Shown: piece by piece, positions 4,621-38,531 of the stretch
Layout: each line of letters opens with the position of its first letter
How positions within the stretch are numbered: position 1 is the stretch's first letter
Notes under the pieces: model-generated
Told to the model about the DNA's origin: nothing
Seen by the model: the letters and a program-made list of their open reading frames with translations, nothing else
Databases searched by the model: none
Translations under genes and position numbers: made by a program
NCBI GenBank assembly: GCA_965198225.1
Contig: CBDAOY010000008.1
Span: 800,001 to 864,000, forward strand
Reading direction: 5' to 3'
Source of the DNA: Terriglobia bacterium
GTDB lineage: Bacteria; Acidobacteriota; Terriglobia; 20CM-2-55-15
DNA: 64,000 nt

Positions 4621-4941
4621 ATGGCATGGCTTCTCATTCTGATTGCTGGCACCTTTGAGGTGGTTTGGGCGATAGGGCTCAAGTACACGGACGGCTTCAC
4701 GCGGCTCTGGCCCAGTGTGGTGACGGCCGCGGCCATTGTCCTGAGCATGCTTTTTCTGGCCCAGGCTGCGCGCCTGCTTCCGATCGGTACCGCTTACGCG
4801 GTCTGGACCGGGATCGGCGCAGCCGGAACGGCCGTCTTGGGAATCATCCTCTTCGGGGAGTCCCGCGACATCGCGCGCCTGGGCTCGATCCTCGTCATCA
4901 TTGCCGGGATCGTCAGCCTCAGCCTCACCTCAGGGGATTAA
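4621..4941 (+). CDS. sugE: SMR family exporter, Gdx/SugE subtype
   Basis: [32 protein letters not shown] and [16 protein letters not shown] at 4621 after AAAGGA. Confidence 0.9.
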
Positions 4942-7496
4942 GGATCCGTTTTACAGCTCTGGGAGAAGGACCGGACCGCTGCCTCAACGACGGCCGTCAT
5001 CTCCACATAGTCGTCGCCCACGACATCAATAGCCCGCCCGAACTGCAACCGGAGGTGCCCGGATCGTGGCCAGGAGTCGTGAAGGGAAAGGATGTCGAAC
5101 ATGCCCTCAATGTAAGTGGGGACAACCGGTACCCGAAGTCGGAGAGCCATCAGTCCCACTCCGGGGCGGAACGGTTGGAGGCGGCCATCGGGTGTGCGCT
5201 TTCCCTCCGGGAAGAGAAGGGGGCAATAACCCCTTTCTACGAGTTCTCCCGTGTAGCGGAGCGTATCGCGCACCTGTCCCAGATCCTGCGAAAGGGGATA
5301 GGCGTTGATCAGGGAGCAGGCCAGGTAGTATTGAACGTGCATGGACAACGTCTGGAATCGGCCCTGCTGGCCTGCGGGGGGGAAGAAGTGTTCTTGACGC
5401 ATCGCAGGAGCCAGGCGTCTTCTCCAGTGACCGGGCAACGCGGCGAGGATAGCCACTGTGTCGAGGTGACTGGTGTGATTTGCGGCGAAGATGACCGGTC
5501 CGTCCAGGTCCGCCAGGTTGTCGAGACCGTCGACTCGCAAGGTGATGTAGTGGTTGAACAGGGGTAGGATCAAGAGTCTCCGCACGGCGCTGCGCGGAAG
5601 CGCGACCATCCGTGATCGGGCCCAGCGCGGCCCTTCGATTCGTGAGCGACCAGCAGCTGGTCCGCTTGACGGCGGTAGGGAAGCAGTAGTGCCTTGGGGG
5701 GTGGTTGGGCGTTTGGCCCGCTCCACCCAGGCCGTCAGGTCGTCGATCGTCGAGAGCCTCGAGAACTCCATCTCGTCCAACTCGAGACCGTATCGTTCTT
5801 CGATCCAGGCCAGGAGGTCGATCCTTTCCAGCGACGACAGGCCCAGATCTTCCGCCAGCCGCCCTCGGCCCGAGACGTCTCTCATTGATCGACCAGTGAC
5901 ATGCTGGAGGTAGTCGTCGAGCCCGGCGTCCTGGGCCGCGACCTGGCGATCGGAGGACGAGGCGGACAGCCGCTCGCCGACTTTCCGGCGTTGAATTTTC
6001 AGCGTTGATGAGGTGCGCGGAAAGTCTTCGTCGGGCCAGATCGACCACCGTTGGACCCTCTGGTGCGCTTCGAGCCGGCTATTGACGCGGTCCACCAGAG
6101 ACCCCGGCTCCGTGTCTGGATCGGACAGAATGAGAACGGCGTGAATCTTCTCGCTGCCTGCCTCAACGACGGGCAGGACGACGCAGTCGCGGACAGCGGC
6201 CTCCTGCCTGATCGAGGCCTCGACGTCTTCCGGGTAGACGTTCATGCCGTCCGGGGTCACGATAACGTCCTTCTTGCGCCCCTTGTAGACGAGCCGGCCT
6301 TCGTTGTCCAATTCCCCGAGGTCCCCTGTGTGGAGCCAGCCCTGCGCGTCGGCGACGGGTGTGGTCGAAGAACCGCTCTCCAGGTACTCGCTGACAACAC
6401 TGCGGCCCCGAACCAGAATCTCTCCGTCCTCGTCGATCCGGACTTCCTGGCTTCCGATCACCTTGCCGAGCGTGCCCCGTCGGGCATGGAAGGGATGGTT
6501 GACCGACACGACGGGGCTGGTCTCGGTCAGGCCGTATCCCTGCACGACCAGGAAACCGACCCTCGACCAAAATGCTTCGGTCTCGGCAGCCAACGCCGCC
6601 CCGCCCACGACGAAGGACCAGAATTTCATACCGAATTCGCGGTGCACCGACCGGTGGCGCCACCAGCGGCGCGCGACGCCGACCGGCCCCGCGGGCTTTG
6701 TCCGTGTGCTCGGGTGACGTCGCTCGAGGTCCGCCCTCAGGCTGTCGAGAATCCGCGGGACACAGACCAGGACCGAGACGCGTTCTCGACGTATCGCGCG
6801 CCGAATCGCCGCTGGGTGAAGGCCATTCACGAACACGGTTGCCCCACCTAGCAGCACGGGGATAAAAACACCCATGGATTGTCCGAACATGTGGCTCAGA
6901 GGCAACAGGTTCAGGAAGCGAATGGGCTGGAAGGGCTGTGCCCATGTCCTGTAGCGATCAATTTCGACCCGGATCGGATTCAGATTGGCGCATATGTTCC
7001 GGTGTCGGTGGACGACTCCCTTGGGCTCGGCGGTCGTGCCCGAGGTGTAGATGATCTCCACGATGTCGTCCCCGGTGACCGTTGTCGGATCGAATGAAGA
7101 GACCTCGGGAAGCTGGTTCACATGATCCAGGACGATCTGCTCTGTCGGGAGAGCGAGCTGTTTCTCCCGGTCATGCACCAGGAGCCCGGCATCAGCCTGG
7201 GCGAGAATTCTGGACACGAATTCCGGTGAGGAACCGGGGTCGAGCGGAACGACCTGAACGCCGCGTGCGAGGCAGGCCCAGAAGACTGCGACCCATTCCG
7301 GACAGGCTTGAGCCCAGAGCAGAACGCGATCTCCTTTGCCAATCCCCCTGGAGTCGAGGTGGGAGACGACCCCCGTTATTCGACTTTGAAGGTCGCGATA
7401 GGACCATTTCCACGTCCGGAATCCGTTCGAGAAGCGGAAGGCTTCGCGAGCGCCCAGAGACGCGATGCGGGGCAGGAGATCCAGCAGCGTTTCCAT
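4938..7496 (-). CDS. Long-chain acyl-CoA ligase / acyl carrier / PlsC acyltransferase tri-domain protein
   Basis: YTSGTT, GYGLTE and TGDLG (AMP-binding). DLGLSSL (phosphopantetheine site). NHTSHLD and FPEGKR (acyltransferase). Confidence 0.9.
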
Positions 7497-7530
7497 GGTT
7501 CACACAGCCGATCGTCTGAGGAATAAATCC

Positions 7531-7559
7531 TTGACCTCGAATTCATCCTACCTTACAAA
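7531..7559 (+). promoter_or_regulatory. Candidate sigma70-type promoter for amt
   Basis: TTGACC-17 nt-TACAAA just upstream of the structured leader. The -10 is imperfect. Confidence 0.35.
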
Positions 7560-7624
7560 GAAGATACGGGCACAACGGCGTCCCCGAGGCGGGAATTCTC
7601 CGAGCGAGAAGCGTTCGCGCCGCC

Positions 7625-7690
7625 GACAACGAAGTCAAACGAGACAAAGGCGTCCAATGGTGAGGATACCCCTCTTCATTGGACTTTTTT
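7625..7690 (+). promoter_or_regulatory. ANTAR-target dual hairpin overlapping an intrinsic terminator (attenuator) in the amt leader
   Basis: GAC-AACGAA-GTC, a 6-nt linker, then GAC-AAAGGC-GTC (hexaloops with A1/G4). The last GTC begins the terminator stem GTCCAATG...CATTGGAC, followed by T6. Confidence 0.85.
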
Positions 7691-7715
7691 GTGCCATCAA
7701 GGAGATGTCGTTCTT

Positions 7716-9113
7716 ATGAAACTCAGGACCCTGTCGGTCGCGAGTATTATTCCGTTGCTCTTCGGGCCAGCCGCCGCCGCGGCGGCGCCGCAAGAAGCCG
7801 CATCTGTAGCTGTGAACTCCGGGGATACAGCCTGGATCATGGTTTGCTCCGCCCTCGTACTGCTCATGACGATTCCGGGCCTGGCGCTTTTCTACGGCGG
7901 CCTGGTCCACACGAAAAACGTTCTGGCCACTTTGATGCAGAGCTTCATCATTGCAGCACTCATCAGCGTTCAGTGGGTTGTGATTGGCTACAGTCTGGCC
8001 TTCTCTCCGGGTGCACTCATCGGTGGGTTGGATTGGATCGGGCTCCAGGGTGTCGGTCTGGAACCCGGGATGTATTCCGACACGATTCCGCACCAGGCCT
8101 TCATGGTGTTCCAGTTGATGTTTGCCATCATCACCCCGGCACTGATGACCGGAGCCTTTGCCGAGCGGATGAAGTTCAGCACGTTCCTGGTGTTCACGCT
8201 CCTCTGGGCAACCTTCATTTACGACCCCTTGGCTCACTGGGTCTGGGGCTCGGGCGGATGGCTTGGCGAGCTGGGAGCGCTGGATTTTGCCGGCGGAACC
8301 GTCGTGCACATCAGTTCGGGCATCTCCGCGCTTGTCGCTGCGCTCATGATCGGACGCCGGATCAATTACGGTCACATGACACCGCCCCACAACCTTCCGT
8401 TCACCGTGCTCGGTGCATCGCTCCTGTGGGTTGGCTGGTTCGGCTTCAACGCCGGATCATCGCTTGCGGCGGATGGCCTGGCGGTCAGCGCTTTTGTCGT
8501 GACCAACACCGCGGGTGCGTCCGGTGTGCTGGGGTGGATGGGCGCGGAGTGGTTCACCAAGGGGAAGCCGACTATGCTGGGCGCCGCGACCGGTGCGGTT
8601 GCGGGCCTGGTGGCGATCACTCCCGCGGCGGGCTTCGTCGGGCCGGTGTCGGCCATCGCGATCGGTTTCATCGCGGGCAAGCTGTGCTACTGGGCCTGCG
8701 AGCTGAAAGCCCGACTCGGTTATGACGACGCGCTCGACGTCGTGGGCGTCCATGGCGTCGGCGGAGTGTGGGGCGCCCTGGCGACCGGTGTGTTCGCATC
8801 GACTGCCGTGAACCCGGATGGCGCAAATGGACTGCTCTACGGAAATCCCGGTCTGGTATGGACCCAGTTCATCGCCGTCGTCGCCACGGTGGCCTTCGCT
8901 GGAATCGGAACCTTCCTGATCCTCAGCTTGCTGAAGGTCGTGATGGGGCTGCGTGTCACTGCCGAGGAGGAGCAACTGGGCCTGGACATGAGCCAGCACA
9001 GCGAGAATGCCTACGCGTTCGAACCGACCGGGTATGGGGAATCAGCGCCGGAGTGGGCCCTGGAGGAAACGGGGAAGGGTGTGCCCGCGGAGGGATCGGT
9101 GTTGGAGTCGTAG
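7716..9113 (+). CDS. amtB: Ammonium transporter
   Basis: FQLMFAIIT, DFAGGTVVH, WFGFNAGS and DDALDVVGVHG motifs. Start taken at MKLRT after GGAG. Confidence 0.96.
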   Translation: MKLRTLSVASIIPLLFGPAAAAAAPQEAASVAVNSGDTAWIMVCSALVLLMTIPGLALFYGGLVHTKNVLATLMQSFIIAALISVQWVVIGYSLAFSPGALIGGLDWIGLQGVGLEPGMYSDTIPHQAFMVFQLMFAIITPALMTGAFAERMKFSTFLVFTLLWATFIYDPLAHWVWGSGGWLGELGALDFAGGTVVHISSGISALVAALMIGRRINYGHMTPPHNLPFTVLGASLLWVGWFGFNAGSSLAADGLAVSAFVVTNTAGASGVLGWMGAEWFTKGKPTMLGAATGAVAGLVAITPAAGFVGPVSAIAIGFIAGKLCYWACELKARLGYDDALDVVGVHGVGGVWGALATGVFASTAVNPDGANGLLYGNPGLVWTQFIAVVATVAFAGIGTFLILSLLKVVMGLRVTAEEEQLGLDMSQHSENAYAFEPTGYGESAPEWALEETGKGVPAEGSVLES

Positions 9114-35102: not shown

Positions 35103-36347
35103 ATGCCAGCCAAGAACTCCATCGTCAGCATCCGTAAGACCCTCGATCTGGCGGGACAGGAATTGAAGATCCTGCACCAGATCAGTCACTCGATCAGCTG
35201 CAGCCTGGATCTCGACAAGGTATTGAAGGAGATCATCGAGCTCGTAGTCGATGTCACGAAGTGTGACTCCTGCTTGCTCTATCTACTCGACGAAAACGAA
35301 CCTTACCTGTTCCTGAGGGCATCCAAGAACCCCCACCCGCGACTGATCGGGAGGATATCGGTCAAAGTCGGCGAAGGGATAACCGGATGGGTGGCCGAGA
35401 ACGCCGAACTGGTGGCGATTTCGAAGAATGCGAGCAAGGATCCTCGATTTCGAGTCTTCAGCAACCTGCCAGAGGACCGTTACGAGTCTTTTCTGTCGGC
35501 ACCCATCATTGCTCCGACCGAACGTGTCACCGGAGTCATCAACGTTCAGCACCGAAAATCGCACCGTCATTCTGAGAAAGAGAAGACGCTGATCTCGATC
35601 ATCGGACACCAGGTGGGTGGGGCGATCGAGAACGCCCGACTGTACGAGGAAACGAAACGGCAGACGCAACAGCTCTCGACACTGTCGCGGGTCAGCCAGC
35701 TCGCCGCGTCAGGGAAGTACTTGGACGAGATGCTGCAACTGATCGCGAACCTGACTGCTGAAACGATGCAGGCACGTCTCTGTTCGATCATGCTGGTGGA
35801 CAAGAAAAAGAATGAGCTCATCCTGAAGGCTGCCCAGTGCTCGAGTGAGGAATACTGGCAGCGTCCGAACCTGAAGATCGGAAAGAGCCTCGTCAGCAGG
35901 GTGGTCAAGGCGGGCAAACCGCTGATGGTCAAAGATGTCACGAAGGAAGCCGGCTACCGGTATCCGGAGCTGGCGAAGAAGGAAGGCGTTCGTTCGCTTC
36001 TTTCGGTACCGATGATCGCCAAGGACACGGTCATCGGGGTGATTAACGTCTATTCGGGCGAAGCGAAAGTTTTCTCTGAAGACGACTTGCGGGTGCTCAC
36101 TACGGTGTGCGACCAGGCCGCCCTGGCCATCGAGAACACCCAGTTAGCGGTCGCGATCCAGGAAAGGGAGGAGGCGCTCGCAGCCCGAAAAATCGTCGAC
36201 CGCGCTAAGAGCATCCTGCAACGCCAATTGGAGCTTTCAGAGGATGAGGCCTACCGGCGACTGCGCCAGCAGAGTATGAAGACACGTCGGACGATGCGGG
36301 AGATCGCCGAAGCGGTCATTCTTTCCAGTGAGATGCAGTCACCTTGA
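35103..36347 (+). CDS. GAF-GAF-ANTAR RNA-binding antiterminator
   Basis: Two GAF repeats followed by the ANTAR motif RKIVDRAKSILQ..LSEDEAYRRLRQQSMKTRRTMREIAEAVI. Start position approximate. Confidence 0.92.
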   Translation: MPAKNSIVSIRKTLDLAGQELKILHQISHSISCSLDLDKVLKEIIELVVDVTKCDSCLLYLLDENEPYLFLRASKNPHPRLIGRISVKVGEGITGWVAENAELVAISKNASKDPRFRVFSNLPEDRYESFLSAPIIAPTERVTGVINVQHRKSHRHSEKEKTLISIIGHQVGGAIENARLYEETKRQTQQLSTLSRVSQLAASGKYLDEMLQLIANLTAETMQARLCSIMLVDKKKNELILKAAQCSSEEYWQRPNLKIGKSLVSRVVKAGKPLMVKDVTKEAGYRYPELAKKEGVRSLLSVPMIAKDTVIGVINVYSGEAKVFSEDDLRVLTTVCDQAALAIENTQLAVAIQEREEALAARKIVDRAKSILQRQLELSEDEAYRRLRQQSMKTRRTMREIAEAVILSSEMQSP

Positions 36348-36644
36348 TTCGGGTCGAGCCGGCGCCGAAGCGCCCACCAGGCTCTGAAGCTCTTCCTCGT
36401 AGTACTTGCGGTAGAGGATGTCCCACTCCTCGCCGCCTTCGGGAATGGTTTTCGTCTGGGATTCAATCTTCAGCCGCGCCGCCTGGTACATCTCCGACTC
36501 TTTCTTGAGCCACTTGTTGAGGACCTCCAGTGCAACCAGGCGAATCGTGTTCCGGTCTTCGTAGAACGTGACCTCATCGATTTCCGCCAGCGTATCTGCG
36601 ACACGGTGAGATAGAAGGTTGATCTTGTCCCTGGAGAGCCGCAT
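36339..36644 (-). CDS. DUF507 family protein
   Basis: MRLSRDKINLLS...IPEGGEEWDILYRKYYEEEL pattern. Confidence 0.78.
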   Translation of the reverse strand: MRLSRDKINLLSHRVADTLAEIDEVTFYEDRNTIRLVALEVLNKWLKKESEMYQAARLKIESQTKTIPEGGEEWDILYRKYYEEELQSLVGASAPARPESR

Positions 36645-36646
36645 GA

Positions 36647-36925
36647 CTACAAGACCAGTTTCCGCTCGCGAACGAGCTTTTTCTTGATCAGCTTGAACAT
36701 TTCCTGGTAGGACGCACCGCTCTCGCGCATCTGGTTCGAGTATTCGCTAAGAAGCACGCGGACCTCGTCGTTCAGACGGTCTTCGAGAGTCACCTCTTCC
36801 TGCAGGGCGTCAAAAATGGAATCGGTCAGGGAAAAGTCGTCGGCCACCTCGATCACGCCGCGATCGAGGAGCTCATCGGTGACCTTTTCGGCAAGCAGGT
36901 TGACGAATTCAGTTCGGAGTGCCAT
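36647..36925 (-). CDS. DUF507 family protein
   Basis: EDRLNDEVR.LL...YQEMFKLIKKKLVRERKLVL pattern. Confidence 0.8.
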   Translation of the reverse strand: MALRTEFVNLLAEKVTDELLDRGVIEVADDFSLTDSIFDALQEEVTLEDRLNDEVRVLLSEYSNQMRESGASYQEMFKLIKKKLVRERKLVL

Positions 36926-37002
36926 AGGCTATATACAATCTTCCGCCAGAGCTGACCTTCTAATCTCCCACAACTCGTGAGCTTTTTCAACCGAGCGGGC
37001 GT

Positions 37003-37182
37003 GTAGGTGCGGTCTAGGACCGGAACCATTCATTAGCGTCGGGCCCACCGTCCCCCTCCCGACGAAGACTTGAGCGTTCAAGTACCGATCGCAGAGCGCG
37101 CGTGCGTGGAGAAAGACAGCTGGTCCGGTCCCCCCACGCCTCCCTCAAGCCGGAACAGTGTGCGGTCATAGACCGCACCTAC
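37003..37182. repeat. Inverted pair of GTAG-type REPs
   Basis: GTAGGTGCGGTCTAGGACCG at 37003 and GTGTGCGGTCATAGACCGCACCTAC at 37158. Confidence 0.75.
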
Positions 37183-37199
37183 ACTTGCCGAGATCGGCT

Positions 37200-38531
37200 T
37201 CAGGAAACGGGTCCGGCCGGTGAAGCGGCGGAACTCGACGGTCCAGTTGCAGCGGCCATGGCGGGCTCGGCGAGGATACCGGTTTCACCTTCGGTTCGGG
37301 CTATGATCACGGCGCCGCATGAATCGCTGAAGACATTGATCGAGGTCCGAACCATATCCAGGAGACGGTCCGTGACAAGGATCAGGCCGATCGCTTCGAC
37401 GGGCAGGCCGATCGCCGTCAGGATGATCGTGATCGCAACCAGACTGGCTGCGGGTATGCCCGCTACCCCGATCGACGTTATCAGAGCCGTAAAAACTATC
37501 GTGAACTGCGTCACAAAACCCAGTTCGATGCCGTAGGCCTGGGCAATAAACATGGCGGCAACACACTCGTAGAGGGCGGTACCGTCCATGTTGACCGTCG
37601 CGCCGAGCGGAAGGACGAAACTGGTGACGCGATTGGACACCCCGGCTTTCTTCTCGACAGATTCCATGGTGAGCGGCAGCGTCGCCGATGATGAGGCGGT
37701 GGAGAACGCCGTCAACATCGCCGGCGACATCGCGCGGTAGTGGCGCCAGGGGTTGACCCTTCCGATGAAATAGAGCAGCAGCGGCAGGGTGATCAACGTG
37801 TGTCCGAGCAGGCTGAACAATGCGGTGAAGAAGAAGGCCAGGAGGGGGAGAAATGCCTCAAACCCGGTCTGGGTTACCTCTTCGGCGACGAGACCGAACA
37901 CCCCCAGTGGAGTGAACATCATCACCCACATCGTGATCCGCATCATGGTTTCGAAGACCCCATTCGCGAAACGTTGCATTGTCTCCGAAAAGTCTGTGTG
38001 GATTTGGTTGAGGAAATACCCGAACAGGATACTGAAGAAGATCAGGCCGAGCATCTGCCCGTTGGCTGCGGCTGCGACGATGTTGGTGGGAACCATGCGG
38101 AGAAACAGCCCCGCCAGGTCGCCGGCGCCCCGTCCTTCGAACTGCGCAGCGAGCTCTTCCGAATCCTCCTGGAGGCCGAGGCGCTCGCCCGCCGGCTGTC
38201 CGTTGATGATGCCCGGCGTGACGATGTTGACGACGGTCAGGCCCAGAAAAATAGCCAAAAGGCTCGTCGCGATGTAGTAACCCGCGGTCTTGGCGCCGAG
38301 GCGGCCCAGGTCGCTGCCCGAACCCAGGCCCGCGACCCCACTGATGATCGAGGACATGATCAGGGGAACGATCAACATACGCAGGGCGTTGAGGAACATG
38401 GTCCCCATGAAATCGTAGACGCTCAGGAGCGGCACTCCCAGAAAGGTCGATTCCGGGTCGGTCGCCAGTCCGGCCAGCGCGGCCAGGACGATGGCGATCA
38501 GGATTTGCCAGTGCAGCTTCAGTTTGCCCAT
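37200..38531 (-). CDS. Dicarboxylate/amino acid:cation symporter (DAACS, GltP/GltT-like)
   Basis: STASSSATLP, PLGATVNMDGTALY and DRLLDMVRTSINV motifs. Confidence 0.95.
   Translation of the reverse strand: MGKLKLHWQILIAIVLAALAGLATDPESTFLGVPLLSVYDFMGTMFLNALRMLIVPLIMSSIISGVAGLGSGSDLGRLGAKTAGYYIATSLLAIFLGLTVVNIVTPGIINGQPAGERLGLQEDSEELAAQFEGRGAGDLAGLFLRMVPTNIVAAAANGQMLGLIFFSILFGYFLNQIHTDFSETMQRFANGVFETMMRITMWVMMFTPLGVFGLVAEEVTQTGFEAFLPLLAFFFTALFSLLGHTLITLPLLLYFIGRVNPWRHYRAMSPAMLTAFSTASSSATLPLTMESVEKKAGVSNRVTSFVLPLGATVNMDGTALYECVAAMFIAQAYGIELGFVTQFTIVFTALITSIGVAGIPAASLVAITIILTAIGLPVEAIGLILVTDRLLDMVRTSINVFSDSCGAVIIARTEGETGILAEPAMAAATGPSSSAASPAGPVS

Follow-up and report, generated by a model that had tools for sequence, protein, structure and literature searches.

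How is an ammonium transporter gene controlled when no glnK gene lies beside it and no sigma-54 promoter is seen in front of it? This question is raised by amt, a gene in the 64,000-nt stretch of DNA that we analyzed (the window; contig CBDAOY010000008.1, + strand, to which all coordinates refer unless another contig is named). The host is an uncultured, soil-type Terriglobia bacterium (Acidobacteriota) near uncultured Solibacteraceae metagenome-assembled genomes, and its 6.4-Mb genome, labeled G000 here, is 97% complete. An original prediction, made from the DNA letters, had placed in the amt leader an attenuator with the architecture bound by ANTAR antiterminators and had proposed that amt is gated by RNA antitermination. 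Our analysis supports this interpretation through the conservation of the element, the presence of an ANTAR protein in the genome, and the first rank of the leader in a covariance-model search. Thus, we consider it likely that the amt leader is an ANTAR-type transcription attenuator, which would be opened by a GAF-GAF-ANTAR protein.

The Amt protein matched PF00909 with 435 bits (E value of 2.5e-130) and TIGR00836 with 470 bits, against a cut-off of 343, and amt is the only ammonium transporter gene of the genome (a single PF00909 match). The original prediction had pointed out the lack of an adjacent glnK; indeed, the sole P-II gene is located on another contig (C7), where it lies downstream of glnA and adjoins a glnE-like gene, with GlnD nearby. 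It had also reported no sigma-54 -24/-12 box, and we found none with three or fewer mismatches to the consensus on the + strand between 7271 and 7832. The genome encodes sigma-54 and many sigma-54 activators, and no protein scored above the cut-off for the NtrC equivalog (best score, 446 bits against 558.6).

Architecture of the amt leader

The leader and the gene that follows it contain these parts:

7531..7559, + strand: putative sigma-70-type promoter, judged from sequence (TTGACC at 7531-7536, a 17-nt spacer, and TACAAA at 7554-7559)
7568..7585, + strand: hairpin A, GGGCAC-AACGGC-GTCCCC, a hexaloop whose first base is A and fourth base is G (A1/G4); 5' proximal and conserved in the family
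7586..7624, + strand: spacer between hairpin A and P1, 39 nt, predicted to fold on itself (minimum free energy); sequence not conserved
7625..7636, + strand: P1, GAC-AACGAA-GTC, 3-bp stem; first hairpin of the dual-hairpin antiterminator
7637..7642, + strand: linker between P1 and P2, 6 nt
7643..7654, + strand: P2, GAC-AAAGGC-GTC, with its 3' arm common to the terminator
7652..7690, + strand: intrinsic terminator, its stem spanning 7652-7684 (outer 9 bp and inner 4 bp), with T6 immediately 3' at 7685-7690
7699..7704, + strand: Shine-Dalgarno-like AAGGAG, 11 nt 5' of the start codon and outside the terminator
7716..9113, + strand: amt, starting with the ATG at 7716, 465 amino acids

The coordinates originally given for P1 and P2, their 6-nt spacing, and their A1/G4 loops were exact to the base. 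The terminator stem begins with the three bases of the P2 3' arm (7652-7654), as had been claimed, so the two folds overlap by 3 nt and are mutually exclusive. The terminator pairs 7652-7660 with 7676-7684 (nine pairs, one of them G.U), and an inner helix pairs 7662-7665 with 7671-7674. The additional hairpin with the loop AACGGC was also found where it had been placed, at 7568-7585, and its stem carries one C.C mismatch, at the third pair counted from the loop, that the original prediction had not mentioned. The AACGGC loop is shared with P1 of the first attenuator in the urt leader, a second target described below. Two leaders from the same genus, L005 and L006, have a different spacer sequence between these two hairpins, A and P1.

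In the available excerpt of Ramesh et al. (2012, PMC3369931), ANTAR targets are described as two stems of at least 3 bp with A1/G4 hexaloops, a linker that is 5 to 12 nt long in Enterococcus faecalis, and a P2 hairpin that overlaps an intrinsic terminator; linkers of 3 or 14 nt impaired function in E. faecalis. All of these sequence features are found in the amt leader, which upholds the assignment of an ANTAR-target architecture. The minimum free energy fold of the leader includes the terminator. The terminator hairpin has a fold energy of -19.3 kcal/mol, compared with -0.7 kcal/mol each for P1 and P2 alone; thus, the default fold would be termination, and the antiterminator would need to be stabilized by a protein. 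A terminator scan with a loop limit of 3 to 8 nt listed none in the amt leader, a limit that excludes such a bulged stem.

The transcript is predicted to start a few bases 5' of hairpin A. A consensus promoter scan did not list the 7531-7559 site, since position 6 of its -10 element is A. The urt leader and the leaders of relatives likewise have the layout TTGAC(N)-N17-TA(N)AA(N) directly 5' of their first hairpin. At the other end of the leader, a mini-frame of four codons (ATG to TGA, window 7705-7719) abuts the Shine-Dalgarno-like sequence, and its stop overlaps the amt start codon (ATGA). This frame is probably meaningless because its spacing to the Shine-Dalgarno-like sequence is zero.

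Chance controls and conservation

The original prediction had suggested scanning the whole genome for more sites, scoring the leader with a covariance model, and looking for the hairpins in related amt leaders. A strict scan for two A1/G4 hexaloop hairpins no more than 15 nt apart with an overlapping terminator whose stem had 8 bp or more returned four sites in G000, compared with zero to two in five block shuffles and one in the reversed sequence. Three of the four were the amt leader and two elements in the urt leader. The covariance model (R1) was built from 12 equal-length elements of other genomes whose linker was 7 nt, under an imposed dual-hairpin structure and excluding the amt leader; an initial MAFFT alignment (A1) had been dropped because the GAC-type P1 hairpins were misaligned. 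Across the 6.4-Mb genome, R1 ranked the amt leader first (C8:807625-807654, which is 7625-7654 of the window), with 25.2 bits and an E value of 0.0017. The second urt unit ranked second (23.8 bits) and the first urt unit fifth (17.4 bits), and all remaining matches had 19 bits or less. Twelve lower matches were rejected, as 11 were located inside long open frames and one in none, and none of the 12 had a terminator.

Among amt orthologues with at least 65% identity, eight of nine leaders keep the 5' hairpin A and a terminator-coupled GAC-hexaloop-GTC hairpin, and the stems covary, in agreement with what the prediction had expected of related leaders. Hairpin A is GGGCAC/GTCCCC in G000 and GGGTAC/GTACCT, GGTAC/GTACC, GGGTAC/GTACCC, or GCGCTCAC/GTGAGCGC in the others, with loops of the form AAYGNN. 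The same element, with the stem GCCAC/GTGGC, was found in front of a distant amt paralogue (L027, 37% identity). Leaders of amt genes at approximately 52 to 55% identity, which have a P-II gene directly upstream, were searched and the motif was not found. In other genera, hairpin A partners the terminator-coupled hairpin across 9 to 50 nt, and in the genus of the host an additional GAC hairpin produces the canonical 6- to 7-nt linker; hairpin A is probably the ancestral P1.

The composite pattern, which consists of P1, P2, and a T-run, is restricted to one family. It was found in 26 of 34 family genomes, where we counted 37 distinct sites, and in none of the 34 reversed controls, in 0 of 16 from other families of the class, and in 3 of 300 other Acidobacteriota, against 2 of 300 in the reversed control. 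Features that the pattern did not impose were assessed on 28 family sites. The third pair of P1 is formed in 27 of these (G-C in 14, C-G in 9, and T-A in 4), and a stem of at least 6 bp begins at the GTC of P2 in 22, compared with 4% of shuffled spacers. The two stems are separated by 5 to 13 nt in the family elements, and many of the sites are in tandem.

The element is also associated with nitrogen genes. The first open reading frames (ORFs) 3' of 25 family sites belonged to the families Amt (six), P-II (two), GlnA (one), CitMHS_2 (two), and Gcw_chp (one) or to no family (13). All three extended loci of sister genomes, L106 (G001:C4), L107 (G005:C5), and L108 (G006:C1), carry tandem attenuators followed by an ORF of about 280 to 335 amino acids (matching Gcw_chp at one locus and no family at the other two), amt, and P-II. 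The amt gene of these operons is of a second type, and the operon is missing from G000, which has one amt and one P-II gene in total. Separately, at L069 and L070 of genus g7, genes for CitMHS_2 transporters (PF16980, approximately 497 bits) have attenuators of this type in front of them.

A looser scan of G000, requiring P2 and, for the terminator, a stem no shorter than 7 bp, also picked up a repeat in which CAAATATCGCAATTTG is followed by a terminator-like stem at nine places, none of them in the window. The sites include C4:278080, C7:508118/508414/508711, C7:726516, C8:635939/636230, and C9:948753, and some copies are in tandem, approximately 291 to 297 nt apart. The same sequences or scores appeared on two contigs of G000 in two cases (C2:36490-36587 and C5:905970-906067; C4:496999-497361 and C5:849561-849923), which could reflect either redundancy in the assembly or genuine duplications close to the ends of contigs.

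The candidate regulator and the urt leader

G000 contains exactly one ANTAR-domain gene (PF03861, a single match of 67.7 bits), and it is located in the window:

35103..36347, + strand: GAF-GAF-ANTAR candidate regulator, 414 amino acids, 27 kb downstream of the amt leader

The start codon (ATG at 35103) was chosen from orthologues of 413 to 416 amino acids. The ANTAR domain scored 63.6 bits against a cut-off of 27.3 and covered profile positions 4 to 54 of 54 (Pfam), with two GAF stretches besides; the ANTAR region matched the PDB entries 6wsh, 1s8n, and 4akk. The second GAF stretch (GAF2) best matched the N-terminal region of NifA (91.6 bits), whose GAF domain binds 2-oxoglutarate. The best match of the first (GAF1) was the N-terminal GAF region of PtsP/EI-Ntr (128.5 bits in NCBIfam; PDB 3ci6, E value of 1.5e-21), and an excerpt of Ronneau (2016) describes the GAF domain in EI-Ntr (PtsP) as glutamine binding. 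By Pfam, neither a receiver (REC) domain nor a NIT or AmiR_N domain was present in the window protein or in the ANTAR proteins of relatives (0 of 27).

All 27 ANTAR proteins tested from relatives combine GAF with ANTAR, and 24 of them have two GAF stretches. The protein is present in 22 of the 23 other family genomes, and the exception is 68% complete. Over all 40 genomes searched, 28 encode an ANTAR protein, G000 counted: 17 genomes have both the pattern and the protein, 11 the protein only, one the pattern only (68% complete), and 11 neither, a cross-tabulation to which no statistical test was applied, the genomes being related. In one relative (G014, contig C61; L036/L010), the GAF-ANTAR gene and an attenuated amt are adjacent and convergent, with the ANTAR domain at 5984-6136 (+) and amt at 7543-6311 (-). 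Beside the regulator gene of the window, at 36339-38531 on the - strand, are a DUF507 ORF and a gene of the sodium:dicarboxylate symporter family (PF00375, 414 bits), and no attenuator was seen near these genes.

The second target in G000 lies outside the window, in the leader of the urt genes on contig C5 (856278-856416; L002, 4279-4425). Two full attenuators are in tandem there, and a promoter-like site (TTGACC-N17-TATAAC) is positioned 5' of both:

urt unit 1 (L002, first): GCAC-AACGGC-GTGC, then GAC-ACTGAA-GTC, then a terminator
urt unit 2 (L002, second): GAC-ACCGAA-GTC, then GGAC-ATCGAC-GTCC, then a terminator

Downstream of the attenuators are a 355-amino-acid ORF that is weakly porin-like (84 bits, under the cut-off of 150) and the urtABCDE genes in operon order, and a urease alpha gene is found approximately 6 kb upstream. 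All five Urt proteins scored above their NCBIfam equivalog cut-offs:

UrtA: 568.1 bits, cut-off 492.75
UrtB: 380.3 bits, cut-off 250.3
UrtC: 366.1 bits, cut-off 296.2
UrtD: 317 bits, cut-off 304.1
UrtE: 307.9 bits, cut-off 285.8

In the glnA leader of G000, the motif was not found, even with G permitted at loop position 1. The ORFs of about 280 amino acids that follow many family sites were also considered as homologues of the porin-like ORF of G000, followed by urtA, and this was rejected: tblastn gave no similarity, and at the three extended loci the ORFs precede amt and P-II.

Alternative explanations, related systems, and a proposed mechanism

Several observations weigh against an ANTAR-type attenuator at amt. 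P2 takes just 3 nt away from the terminator, and with P1 and P2 enforced a hairpin of 6 plus 4 bp can still form (-15.7 kcal/mol in total), 3 nt from the U-tract; termination would have to be lost through this 3-nt offset of the residual hairpin. Contigs from RNA libraries (two runs of one study) matched the amt coding region exactly at 8180-8438 and 8288-8448, and none covered the leader, although such contigs cannot show 3' ends. The looser scan returned 70 sites, compared with 37 to 49 in shuffled and 55 in reversed sequence, which is background; therefore, the case is built on the composite architecture and its conservation, and single hairpins are uninformative. The R1 scan scored 150 of 4,608 first-look candidates, and its E value is modest, the motif being tiny. 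One of the three same-genus orthologues, L004 (G001:C189), keeps the promoter and has neither the hexaloop pair nor a T-run, so the attenuator appears to have been lost there; G001 retains the ANTAR gene and another attenuated amt operon. In many family sites, the P2 loop of the first unit is GATGAA or GACGAA (L011, L012, L075, L081-L085, and L088), with G at position 1, a deviation from the published A1 rule that is specific to the lineage. ANTAR-positive genomes lacking the strict pattern comprise six from the family, three of which have looser versions of the element, and five from outside it. The pairing of protein and RNA is drawn from the single ANTAR gene and from co-occurrence among related, nonindependent genomes, and the suggestion of a nitrogen signal from gene content and GAF similarity only.

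Some of these points would fit other explanations. The leader could be a conserved RNA element read by another factor, either an RNA-binding protein or a small-molecule riboswitch, with the GAF-ANTAR protein acting on other targets. The lack of the strict pattern in 11 of 28 ANTAR-positive relatives and the loops with G rather than the canonical A at position 1 speak for this, as does the predicted nature of the binding of the ANTAR protein to the leader. However, the leader has every sequence feature described for ANTAR substrates, and 17 of the 18 pattern-positive genomes encode an ANTAR protein, the exception being the 68% complete genome. Two 3-bp hairpins would also provide no ligand pocket, and a search of window positions 7300-7900 against Rfam at E values up to 10 placed no family, riboswitches included, on the leader and gave just two weak, unrelated matches off the element, in a database for which the presence of an ANTAR-target model was not established. 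Thus, we regard another reader of the element as improbable. Control by an ANTAR protein that binds the leader and mainly affects translation or RNA stability, as reported for actinobacterial ANTAR RNAs at start sites, is quite improbable. The excerpted preprint of Mehta et al. (10.1101/660928) describes GAF/PAS-rich ANTAR systems of actinobacteria as translational repressors, and the 3-nt overlap of P2 with the terminator agrees with such a role. In contrast, the hairpins are 45 to 90 nt upstream of the Shine-Dalgarno-like sequence and do not overlap it, a canonical stem and U-tract follow P2 at amt, at both urt units, and at 22 of 28 family sites, and serial attenuators are sensible for control of termination.

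Chance features beside an ordinary unregulated terminator or leader structure are strongly disfavored and would be very surprising. A single A1/G4 hairpin with a terminator-like stem is common (the 70 sites above, against 37 to 55 in controls), but the gene 5' of the leader (4938-7496) is divergent, so the leader terminator ends no gene. Moreover, the 34 family genomes contain 37 composite sites against none in reversed sequence, orthologous leaders retain the element with covarying stems, and an independent model places it first. A mobile repeat, as a version of this explanation, is countered by sites that precede different nitrogen genes and by terminator sequences that differ.

The ANTAR-type attenuator has close parallels among known systems, for most of which we had the sources in excerpt. 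It resembles EutV and the eut leaders of E. faecalis (PMC3369931) in the pair of A1/G4 hexaloops, the short linker, the terminator overlap, the several attenuators per regulon, and the ANTAR protein. EutV is a phosphorylated REC-ANTAR protein that acts on ethanolamine genes, whereas here a GAF-GAF-ANTAR protein without a receiver would act on amt and urt; the stems are also nearly always closed by GAC/GTC, unlike those of the eut leaders. In the text and Table S2 of their 2012 study, Ramesh et al. predicted ANTAR RNAs before ammonium transporter, urea transporter, and P-II genes, with examples from Clostridium thermocellum and Desulfotomaculum acetoxidans. These predictions share the dual hexaloop motif and the terminator with the present elements, but they are in other phyla and, in the excerpt, none is tied to a GAF-ANTAR regulator. 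A term search of seven supplementary files of that study gave no acidobacterial match, and its Table S1 lists zero ANTAR proteins and zero hits for Candidatus Solibacter usitatus.

In Geobacter sulfurreducens, GnfR-dependent antitermination acts at nifH, and the leaders of glnK and amtB were predicted to contain terminators (Ueki and Lovley 2010, PMC2995071, excerpt). The GnfK/GnfR system thus also places an ANTAR antiterminator in nitrogen control, with terminator-like leaders of glnK, amtB, and nif genes. However, GnfR is a kinase-activated REC-ANTAR protein with the reported conserved binding site CAGGCAANGGCGCC, and its targets are behind RpoN-dependent promoters under GnfL/GnfM, while here there is no sigma-54 box, no receiver domain, and no nif gene among the targets seen. 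NasR, NasT, and AmiR (PMC12591593; Ramesh et al. 2012) likewise control nitrogen-source genes by ANTAR antitermination, and NasR, with its NIT domain, and AmiR, with its partner AmiC, receive a signal by a route other than classical phosphorylation. The sensors of NasR, AmiR, and NasT are NIT, AmiR_N, and REC with NasS, respectively, and their targets are pathway specific; in contrast, the protein described here joins two GAF domains in tandem to ANTAR, and its targets would be the general uptake of ammonium and urea.

The combination of GAF and ANTAR is known from actinobacteria (10.1101/660928; Streptomyces SCO7423, PMC12838073), where the ANTAR RNAs studied mediate translational repression at start sites and do not act through terminators, unlike what is proposed here. 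As far as the excerpts go, no GAF- or PAS-ANTAR protein had been characterized as of 2012 (Ramesh et al. 2012, PMC3369931), GAF-ANTAR was a common, uncharacterized architecture that dominates in mycobacteria (Mehta et al. 2019, 10.1101/660928), a 2025 review only lists it as an architecture (PMC12591593), and a 2026 paper describes such proteins as being of unknown function (PMC12838073). Within the literature collection searched, we found no paper on an acidobacterial ANTAR regulon or a GAF-ANTAR nitrogen regulon. Thus, the RNA mechanism is textbook ANTAR and the link to amt and urea transporter genes was published in 2012 for other phyla; the novelty is the lineage and the receiver-less GAF-GAF-ANTAR regulator, whose pairing with the element throughout the family is a useful and testable lead.

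For the ANTAR-type attenuator, we propose the following mechanism. Initiation at the sigma-70-like promoter just 5' of hairpin A would be constitutive. By default, the strong terminator at 7652-7690 would form in the nascent RNA and halt RNA polymerase before amt. When active, the GAF-GAF-ANTAR protein (35103-36347) would bind P1 and P2, probably in dimeric form, through their A1/G4 hexaloops, and with P2 clamped, three pairs adjacent to the U-tract would be withheld, the terminator disabled, and amt reached by readthrough. The same protein would open two serial gates before the porin-like gene and urtABCDE, so that amt and urt would form a small regulon for scavenging of ammonium and urea. 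The inducing condition would most likely be nitrogen limitation, sensed directly by the GAF domains; direct sensing rather than phosphorylation is expected because the regulator has no receiver domain. More speculatively, the protein might be a one-component sensor of nitrogen status in which glutamine and/or 2-oxoglutarate on the GAF domains switches RNA binding, and control after initiation from constitutive sigma-70-type promoters, extended in sister genera to amt-glnK and glnA, might replace NtrBC and sigma-54; we hold this wider proposal to be possible and rather doubtful.

If it is true, the system would provide the first ligand and regulon for the widespread and uncharacterized GAF-ANTAR class. 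G000 offers a test case for this class, with a single protein and a very small terminator-type regulon (three elements in two leaders); the RNA substrates are thus defined, and the physiological signal to test is an obvious one. Overall, ammonium uptake in this family appears to be gated after initiation rather than through NtrC and sigma-54, and this points to how nitrogen may be controlled in the Acidobacteriota, an abundant soil phylum that is hard to culture.

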